In this document: piece by piece, positions 14,177-49,850 of the stretch
Numbering within the stretch: position 1 is the stretch's first letter
Layout: every line of letters starts with the position of its first letter
IMG/VR virus record: IMGVR_UViG_3300032030_004230
Length of the DNA: 64,000 nt
Strand: one strand, 5' to 3'
Origin: a virus
Lineage: Duplodnaviria > Caudoviricetes
Program-made: the position numbers and the translations under genes
Notes under the pieces: model-generated
What the model saw: only the letters and a program-made list of their open reading frames with translations
Database searches by the model: none
What the model was told of the DNA's origin: nothing

Positions 14177-14338
14177 ATGGATTGGAAATTACTAAAAAGA
14201 CATTCTGACACTCTGCTAGAGTTATGGAAGACTCCTACAAAGTATCTTGTTTGCAAAACATACGAAAGATTTTACAAGTTCTTTGAGACTCATAATGAAG
14301 CTCTTGCGTATTTTAATGCTAAAAGGCAAGAGAGTTAA
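14177..14338 (+). CDS. Small hypothetical protein (53 aa)
   Basis: Not in ORF track; GAGG RBS, MDWKLLKRHSDTLLELWK...KRQES*, fills the intergenic gap. Confidence 0.6.
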   Translation: MDWKLLKRHSDTLLELWKTPTKYLVCKTYERFYKFFETHNEALAYFNAKRQES

Positions 14339-48450: not shown

Positions 48451-48465
48451 AATTAAAAAATTAAC

Positions 48466-49020
48466 TTACTTGTACCTCCAGACATTTTTGACTTTACATG
48501 TCTCAATTTTCATCATATCAAGATTTTTGAATTGAAAATTCTTTGAATTGAGAATGTCAAATATATGATCACCAGTCTCCTCATAGAGTTCTCGTACAAG
48601 TCGTCCATAGAAACCATGACCAATGATGACAACATCATCTGGACAGTCTTTTGTAATGTCTATAAGAGCATTGATCCATCGCGTGCACACATCTGACTTA
48701 CACAAGTGAACTTTTGATTTAAAAGTCTCTTCATCAATTTCCCAAAACTTTAGTCCAGACTCTGCAAGCTCACTTACATCAAATTCAGTAAGGTCAGGAA
48801 CAATTGTGTAGTCTTTTTCTGGGAAGAGCTTTTTAGCTGTTTGTTCACATCTTTTAGCTGGCGACACAAACAACTTGAAACTTTTTGGGAGATGGCAGCC
48901 AATTCTTCTTTTCCAATCATCTGCATCAAAATCAATTATGTCTTGACTATCATAGTCTTTTACAATATCACCCGTAACATTTGCAGCTGTTGGTGCGTGT
49001 CGTATGTAGAATATTCTCAT
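48466..49020 (-). CDS. Histidine phosphatase family protein
   Basis: YIRHA, SPAKRC.QTA, L.E, IGHG. Confidence 0.85.
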   Translation of the reverse strand: MRIFYIRHAPTAANVTGDIVKDYDSQDIIDFDADDWKRRIGCHLPKSFKLFVSPAKRCEQTAKKLFPEKDYTIVPDLTEFDVSELAESGLKFWEIDEETFKSKVHLCKSDVCTRWINALIDITKDCPDDVVIIGHGFYGRLVRELYEETGDHIFDILNSKNFQFKNLDMMKIETCKVKNVWRYK

Positions 49021-49025
49021 TATGA

Positions 49026-49276
49026 TTGAACGCTGCCCCAGGCTAAAGACCTGGGACATTTCAAACTGCTTACAACCTAAAAGGCTGATGTCAGTTCGTT
49101 TTCCTGCTTCATAGAACTACGTGGTTCTCCACAGGCATTTGTACTTTCGGTGGGTTCCCCGCCTACTATGTTGCTTCCAAGCTGGCTACTAACTCGCTTG
49201 CATTATTATATTAACATTTTTTTTGGTGTTGCTACATATGCCACACTAAAGATGTGGCATTTTTACGCAACACGCT
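49026..49276 (-). mobile_element. Miniature non-autonomous IS200/IS605-type element with TnpB omega-RNA-like scaffold
   Basis: Two hairpins with identical TCTTTAG loop (49238-49260, 49037-49055); internal GCCTGTGGAG..ATGAAGCAGGAA; ends in TTCAA; TTTAT just outside the left end; no tnpA/tnpB gene. Confidence 0.7.
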
Positions 49277-49506
49277 ATAAAGAACATTGGATAAATGTTG
49301 TAATATCAACTAAAGAAAGTTTGACAGATGTTGATGTAGCTTCTATAAGCGGTGTTGAAATAACTGATACTGTGTTTGTTCAGTTTGTCATGAAAAACAC
49401 AGTAAAAGGAAAGGTTTCTGGCTCAATAAAAAATGGCATTTTACATGCCTACGGTACTCTTGAAGCAAACACAGATTATTTGGTTTCTTCATTCTTCATT
49501 GCTTGA
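49252..49506 (+). pseudogene. Beta-rich ORF fragment whose 5' end abuts the mini-element
   Basis: KEHWINVV...TLEANTDYLVSSFFIA looks protein-like; no credible RBS or start. Confidence 0.3.
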
Positions 49507-49733
49507 TCTTCAAGTTTGTTGTACTTTCTAATAAGCACCATATAGTAAGGGTCACTTGCTCTGAAACATTTCAATATTCTCTGCAAGAGAAGTTGTTGTT
49601 CTTCTGTTTGAGGCTTATCCCAAGTTATTGTTGTTTCATATCCTTCATAAACTTCTCTTTCTGTTATATATATTTTTGAATATGCAGAAAAGATTGAAAA
49701 CAAAATAACAATAATCATTATAAACTTCTTCAT
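49476..49733 (-). CDS. Small protein with signal peptide
   Basis: AAGGAG RBS; MKKFIMIIVILFSIFSAYS. Confidence 0.7.
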   Translation of the reverse strand: MKKFIMIIVILFSIFSAYSKIYITEREVYEGYETTITWDKPQTEEQQLLLQRILKCFRASDPYYMVLIRKYNKLEDQAMKNEETK

Positions 49734-49850
49734 TTTATAGCTCCTTGTAGTTTGTTTTTGCAATAATAATATAATAAAAATGATAGTCGAAGTTTTAATT
49801 ATTTTGAGTGGCCGACAAAATATAAGACTTTAGACAGGGCAATTTGCGCA

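Follow-up and report, generated by a model that had tools for sequence, protein, structure and literature searches.

Palindrome-associated transposable elements (PATEs), as they were first described, and the TnpB systems of ISDra2 and IS608, which use TTGAT and TTAC as transposon-adjacent motifs (TAMs), respectively, are among the described systems closest to the element analysed here, whose family uses TTTAT. PATEs often encode omega-RNAs and need TnpB in trans from other IS copies (Meers et al. 2023, PMC10055086), and the guide is, as a rule of the family, the DNA 3' of the right end (RE) (PMC10055086). RAGATH-18 is the core of the guide RNAs of IS607 TnpB proteins (PMC11061315), for which AGGAG or GAGGG have been reported as TAMs (PMC13565253). 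We analysed a 64-kb stretch (64,000 nucleotides, hereafter the window) of the genome of a 326-kb phage and found on its minus strand a protein-less, non-autonomous mini element of 252 bp, in which a left end (LE) hairpin is followed, from 5' to 3', by a 55-nt internal segment, the TnpB omega-RNA scaffold of 146 nt and an RE hairpin (Table 1). A sister assembly (326,542 bp) of the 326,521-bp contig to which the window belongs (ENA ERZ27257205) has the same configuration, and a DNA match among GenBank phages was not obtained.

In kind, this element fits the published omega-RNA-bearing PATEs; the kind is already known and the copy is new. It is very probably an IS200/IS605-derived mini element of the PATE type that bears an omega-RNA. 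As in such PATEs, there is no protein gene, LE and RE have subterminal hairpins, the omega-RNA ends at the RE, a 5-nt target motif stands 5' of the LE, and the element would depend on TnpA and TnpB in trans. Unlike PATEs, the window copy resides in a 326.5-kb phage genome and has a promoter-like motif of the phage itself where tnpB would be; it also stands at a breakpoint, with a guide that differs from the sequence after the target motif in element-free relatives. A scaffold encoded at the RE, a guide taken from the flanking DNA and a TAM that equals the TnpA target site are shared with the TnpB systems of ISDra2 and IS608 (PMC10055086), whereas the scaffold sequence differs from theirs and contains a k-turn-like module common to RAGATH-18. 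The RAGATH-18 reRNA (RF03064; Ren et al. 2024, PMC11061315) is likewise a TnpB guide scaffold with an internal-loop hairpin, CCUGUGGAG...AUGAAGCAGGAA, but the window RNA falls below the Rfam threshold, has a short apical stem and belongs to another transposon family with a different TAM and end structure. In contrast to the guides of TldR-type proteins (nuclease-dead TnpB), there is no separate TTTAT-adjacent target in the window, where a search for a second, TAM-adjacent guide match with up to three mismatches gave none, and the TnpBs of the relatives keep the RuvC motif (DRD...NAA). What sets this copy apart is that a phage-type promoter motif occupies the place of tnpB, that its scaffold is intact, though one base is unusual, and that it stands at a junction of gene modules, which led to a new guide.

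The ends of the element are subterminal hairpins that resemble each other, without terminal inverted repeats, and no direct repeat common to both flanks, as expected for a target duplication, was found. Within the 64 kb, hairpins with a TCTTTAG loop and a stem of at least five pairs occur only at the LE and the RE, and the heptamer itself is not enriched in the window. The 271-nt element region folds better than shuffled sequence (z = -4.2). No protein is encoded, as the only open reading frame has four codons and lies in the 55-nt segment, and nothing in the window matches the TnpB profile. All features described in a first-pass annotation of this DNA were found on the minus strand, and its view of a protein-less mini IS200/IS605 element, with family-type LE and RE hairpins and no coding gene inside, is borne out. 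The limits that it gave hold on the LE side; on the RE side, it let the element end with TTCAA at 49026. Because right ends of the family consist of TTCAA plus a variable base (T in eight, C in two and A in two elements, with GTTCAC in more distant members), the boundary falls at 49025 or 49026, and the element probably ends one base further, with TTCAAT. The AAAA 5' of the LE hairpin foot is conserved. We rejected the LE hairpin as a plus strand terminator, as the T-run of such a terminator is the conserved AAAA found beside every family LE.

Table 1. Positions of the mini element, its parts and the adjoining features in the window.
Feature	Position	Strand	Remark
Mini element	49276..49025	-	252 bp
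Target motif/TAM TTTAT	49277..49281	-	Immediately 5' of LE; precedes 13 of 14 family LEs
LE	49226..49276	-	90% identity to the L135 LE; nested hairpins
LE inner hairpin ATGCCACA / loop TCTTTAG / TGTGGCAT	49260-49238	-	8-bp stem
LE outer stem, 7 bp	49273-49267 with 49232-49226	-	Encloses inner hairpin
Internal segment, 55 nt, A/T-rich	49171..49225	-	Replaces tnpB
GTTAATAT	49215-49208	-	Overlaps TAATATAAT at 49213-49205
Predicted omega-RNA scaffold, 146 nt	49025..49170	-	Covariance model R1 and identity to L130/L135; G+C-richer than the 55-nt segment
Scaffold 5' hairpin, GGAAC loop	49163-49149	-	
k-turn-like hairpin	49135-49101	-	Conserved CCUGUGGAG...AUGAAGCAGGAA module
Scaffold stem-loop	49098-49062	-	
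RE hairpin, loop TCTTTAG	49058-49034	-	
RE terminus TTCAA(T)	49030-49025	-	
Predicted guide CATAATGAGAATATTC...	49005..49024	-	First 16-20 nt of RE-flanking DNA; includes phosphatase start codon
Histidine phosphatase gene	48466..49020	-	Pfam His_Phos_1; start codon 4-5 nt downstream of RE
3' fragment of 141-aa gene	49279..49506	+	Last 75 codons and stop; truncated at LE junction
TAATATAAT copies	24432, 26691, 28802, 49767, 51470	+	
TAATATAAT copies	62372, 61604, 61113, 56992, 49213	-	

Relatives of the element were recovered by scanning with its LE and RE patterns. The ~1.84-kb element in L135/L133 encodes a 398-aa TnpB; the L135 LE is 90% identical to that of the window over 59 nt, starting exactly from TTTAT and including an equal outer stem; the RE hairpin and terminus do not differ between the two, and the L135 omega-RNA shows 83% identity. 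For L130, the identity of the omega-RNA amounts to 87% over 145 nt and the inner hairpin of the LE is identical. Similarity of the window element to L135 and L130 is confined to two blocks, the LE and the omega-RNA/RE ending with TTCAAT; since the 55-nt middle segment matches neither of these full-length elements, it stands where tnpB would be. The nested LE architecture, with compensatory stem changes, is present in 11 other elements, and 15 family ends are of the same design. The proposal that TTTAT is the target motif agrees with its occurrence 5' of the family LEs, the single exception reading ATTAT. It is also the target of the full-length elements L135, L130, L139 and L138 (the last with tnpA), which have the same TTCAA(T/C) end; compared with the full-length members, the window copy lacks the ~1.2-kb tnpB and the native LE-proximal promoter region and has one G-to-A change by the RE foot. 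The TnpBs of the relatives, ~400 aa in length, have OrfB_IS605, Cas12f1-like TNB and HTH domains (Pfam). In L138, where the scaffold is the same and the TnpB 60% identical, a Y1_Tnp gene (110 bits) immediately precedes tnpB, which assigns the family to IS200/IS605 and not to IS607.

The TnpB family is very abundant in metagenomes, with more than 500 proteins at E <1e-60; many of the contigs are 1.3-1.8 kb and some 0.2-0.5 Mb long, and one comes from a pig-gut metagenome. A TnpB query against bacterial genomes returned two MAG contigs only, labelled Treponema sp. and Clostridia bacterium, and the scaffold motif gave no match in bacterial genome contigs. Full-length tnpB elements repeatedly adjoin nucleotide-metabolism genes in large phage contigs (L139, L145, L146, L151-L153), their neighbours coding for dCMP deaminase, ThyX, dUTPase and, in the 326,232-bp contig L151, a distant His-phosphatase homologue. 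This neighbourhood may reflect a preference for a site or region, or a tolerance of insertions there. We considered L151 as a contig of the element's own phage and rejected it, as it derives from a different phage, with ~30% identity in the phosphatase and unmatched flanks. The related jumbo-phage contig G001 carries one mini element together with two tnpB elements. Its 467-aa TnpBs (L122 1700-1919; L123, minus strand, ~1500-1290) lie in elements with LE and RE of the family type, TCTTTAG loops and a TTCAAT end; their scaffold is longer, without the CCUGUGGAG module and without an R1 match, and represents a second scaffold subtype with the same ends.

A core pattern derived from the RAGATH-18 match was scanned against the IMG/VR viral contigs, where it is present in at least 119 stretches, many of them 50-90 nt downstream of a TnpB C-terminus. 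Common to these loci are a 5' hairpin whose loop reads GGAAC and a terminal hairpin, after which comes GTTCA(C/A). The covariance model R1 was built from 27 non-redundant, unrelated viral omega-RNAs, with the window left out, and its alignment contains abundant compensatory changes in the 5' and terminal hairpins. R1 matches the window at 49171-49061 with 42.8 bits (E ~2e-8) and the mini element of a related phage contig, L004, with 47.5 bits. In an alignment of six omega-RNAs of the sub-family, compensatory changes affect 11 of 21 pairs, and the window has the same base in 60 of the 61 columns that are invariant among the five relatives, which is as good as tnpB-linked copies. The sole deviation, 3 nt before the foot of the RE hairpin, is an A where 15 of 15 relatives have a G; it could impair recognition of the RE or the RNA. 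Judged by these comparisons, the scaffold is a bona fide TnpB omega-RNA and structurally intact. The omega-RNA scaffold named in the first-pass annotation is thus supported by the R1 score, the 83-87% identity to tnpB-linked omega-RNAs and the covariation, and the check by covariance models that it proposed succeeded with our own model, though not with Rfam, which at gathering thresholds returned nothing in the window and tRNAs only in ten family loci.

The position of the element was compared with five element-free contigs (L140-L144), which carry the full 141-aa gene and a 473-505-bp block of 93-95% identity to the window. The similarity to all five stops exactly at 49277, the base adjoining the LE, which makes the LE junction as precise as first annotated and confirms the target motif to the base. 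On the minus strand, the element-free relatives read ...TTCTTTAT followed by CCAAATTGAAAG, where the 141-aa gene continues, whereas in the window ...TTCTTTAT is followed by the LE. The flank on this side is a 3' fragment of a truncated plus strand gene, not plain intergenic DNA, with 97% identity to residues 67-141 of P0122 and 60-62% identity to P0124 and P0125. What precedes these residues in the relatives, 66 N-terminal codons of the 141-aa gene and, upstream, genes of 596-730 aa, is absent from the window. We rejected the plus strand ORF 49150-49506 as a real gene, as only its last 75 codons have homologues and the rest is antisense LE; the public gene calls at this place (84 and 112 aa) begin inside the antisense LE and are chimeras with the truncated gene. 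In L140-L144, large variable genes without a family match (596-730 aa) precede the 141-aa gene, which comes last and shares 30 nt with a convergent 80-85-aa gene. At 49449-49435 on the minus strand, just past the stop of a 95-aa gene (49476-49763), a hairpin with a T-run resembles a terminator.

On the other side of the element, the RE flank differs from the continuation found in the relatives, and hence the element stands at a rearrangement breakpoint and not at a simple insertion. An empty site in which TTTAT is joined to the start of the phosphatase gene had been predicted, but the relatives read TTTAT followed by CCAAATTGAAAG, and a scarless joint of LE flank and RE flank was not found among the five. 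This failure reflects the history of this copy, whose RE side was rearranged, and not that of the family; most simply, two copies located at separate sites would have recombined, or DNA next to the RE would have been deleted. Because a different sequence originally followed TTTAT, the guide CATAATGAGAATATTC... has no match in the element-free alleles. It does overlap the phosphatase start codon, as the first-pass annotation stated, but its suggestion that the guide would target element-free alleles does not hold, as the RE flank is absent from those alleles. Contigs found via the phosphatase protein (L120, L124, L121, L125) have no element upstream of their phosphatase homologues, and they give no empty site because they are too diverged. 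An 8.6-kb Logan contig of SRR9006805 has an identical block of ThyX and phosphatase genes and ends at ~49090, inside the element, as would be expected as an assembly effect of a repeated or polymorphic element.

Which TnpB could use the RNA? A profile made from 27 TnpB proteins was run against all six-frame ORFs of the 64-kb window, in which no tnpB was found (best E = 0.32); tnpA, sought as the first-pass annotation had advised, was likewise not found there, nor was a second copy of the element by R1 scan and hairpin search. Among the 240 nearest TnpB clusters, none could be tied to the phage genome of the element by an indirect look-up. Elements of this layout are not confined to the window. 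Of 90 viral loci that contain the k-turn module and extend far enough upstream, 62 have a TnpB, 7 give weak matches and 21 none, and several TnpB-less loci show the order LE, promoter, scaffold. Two contigs, IMGVR_UViG_3300044940_000489 (L001, L006, L017, L061) and 3300044993_000568 (L002, L033, L065), each carry many copies of one mini omega-RNA family, with and without tnpB, and in two further phage contigs mini omega-RNA elements adjoin arrays of tRNA genes (L004 139-1076; L012 5844-6504).

In the position of tnpB, the 55-nt segment carries two overlapping phage-type motifs, TAATATAAT and GTTAATAT, 35 nt upstream of the first conserved base of the scaffold. TAATATAAT is present in 10 copies in the window, with 1.0 expected, and GTTAATAT in 12, with 2.3 expected, in line with the earlier statement that the scaffold lies behind a phage motif. 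The A-rich 5' extension of TAATATAAT is conserved in nine copies, most copies are preceded by ATAA, and the other motif copies lie upstream of genes or of candidates for non-coding RNAs. At the corresponding place, other viral mini elements have sigma-70-like promoters. A two-hexamer sigma-70 scan of the window element found no canonical promoter, so that the proposed promoter rests on the enrichment of the motif. The shorter sequence GTTAAT stands 8-13 nt upstream of the ATG of most genes. As GTTAAT(A/T)T, located for example at 14334, 29715, 40532 and 59454 on the plus strand and at 48465, 47759, 40323 and 12460 on the minus strand, it precedes many starts, including those of consecutive genes of an operon, at a distance that points to mRNA leaders that are very short or missing, or to a signal for translation, rather than to a classical -10 box. 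The position of the motif in the element fits an independent expression of the RNA, possibly with read-through into the phosphatase gene. The ATG of the latter is at 49020, as the resulting N-terminus, MRIFYIRHAP, lines up with those of the L120, L121 and L125 homologues, which begin with M-x-x-(F/Y)-Y-I-R-H-A-P. A longer phosphatase ORF from 49059 was rejected as an artefact, as it reads through the RE hairpin and the N-termini of the homologues fit 49020.

For RNA expression, a partner TnpB, cleavage and present-day mobility, we infer the following course from the retained sequence features. Both end hairpins, by which TnpA would recognise the element, are retained, as is the complete omega-RNA scaffold. 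Transcription from the phage motif would yield an RNA of ~190 nt, the last 16-20 nt of which would come from the flank, that is, from the beginning of the phosphatase gene. Loading of this RNA would fall to a TnpB from the same family, encoded elsewhere in the 326.5-kb genome, by a co-infecting phage or by the host, and the complex would cut DNA that reads TTTAT followed by the flank, such as an excision joint or an element-less allele. Repair of the cut by recombination would in turn help to keep the element in place. A function of the omega-RNA in trans is plausible, and the odds that the RNA is used by a TnpB seem nearly balanced, leaning slightly to the negative.

Alternatively, the element could be an inert relic, left when tnpB was deleted and a rearrangement followed, that is now immobile and unused as a guide and has an intact scaffold because these events are recent. 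The lack of tnpB and tnpA in the window and of a TnpB tied to the phage genome, the single copy in 64 kb, the position at a rearrangement scar, the guide unmatched in element-free alleles and the unique G-to-A change beside the RE hairpin foot are all consistent with such decay. It accounts less well for the near-complete set of invariant scaffold columns (60 of 61) with all stems retained, and for the fact that the retained block starts right at the first conserved scaffold base. Moreover, tnpB was replaced by an enriched phage promoter-like motif and not by random sequence, and the same design of LE, promoter and scaffold recurs independently in other viral contigs. We regard a relic as a real possibility, albeit a doubtful one. 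An improbable explanation, in our opinion, is that the element has been domesticated as an expression cassette, with a main role as promoter and structured 5' leader for the phosphatase and the downstream pyrimidine genes, the omega-RNA fold being incidental or a cis regulator. Its RE does end 4-5 nt before the phosphatase ATG, the rearrangement took away any native upstream region, nothing resembling a terminator separates the scaffold from the phosphatase gene, and the nearest GTTAAT/TAATATAAT motif on the same strand is inside the element, compared with 8-13 nt from the ATG in most genes. However, the conservation of the scaffold is what TnpB binding requires and not that of a generic leader, and the phosphatase homologues of the relatives do without such an element. 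That the RNA is instead a RAGATH-18 reRNA of an IS607-type TnpB, from a serine-recombinase transposon, is very improbable; the association of the family with a Y1 TnpA and the structure of its ends already contradict it. RAGATH-18 is the best Rfam match in E-value mode (49135-49101, with all conserved loop nucleotides present), but it reaches 29.2 bits against a cut-off of 44.9 bits, its apical stem is 36 nt longer than that of the window RNA, ten family loci give no match at threshold, and the ends of family members are subterminal hairpins, their target is TTTAT and their TnpA is of the Y1 type.

Returning to an omega-RNA used by a TnpB in trans, one might speculate further that jumbo phages carry promoter-equipped, guide-only mini elements as trans guides for a TnpB encoded elsewhere in the same phage, by one that co-infects or by the host. 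With every copy, one target would be added, much as in a proto-CRISPR with a single spacer, and the dispersed copies would provide portable homology by which gene modules are reshuffled between phages; the junction at 49277 would be a trace of such an exchange, in which the guide was reprogrammed by recombination and not by transposition. In this extended form, the proposal is unlikely to hold as a whole. Irrespective of it, the locus indicates that a TnpB guide scaffold can persist intact behind a phage-type motif in the genome of a huge phage where no nuclease gene is close by, and that such mini elements mark points at which phage gene modules have been rejoined. As about a quarter of the comparable viral loci are without tnpB, the use of guides in trans may be common in phages. 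Should a TnpB in trans indeed load the RNA, the family would illustrate, in compact natural form, how guide and nuclease can be separated, and the ~400-aa TnpB of L130/L135, the 146-nt scaffold and the TTTAT TAM would make up a ready-made test set.
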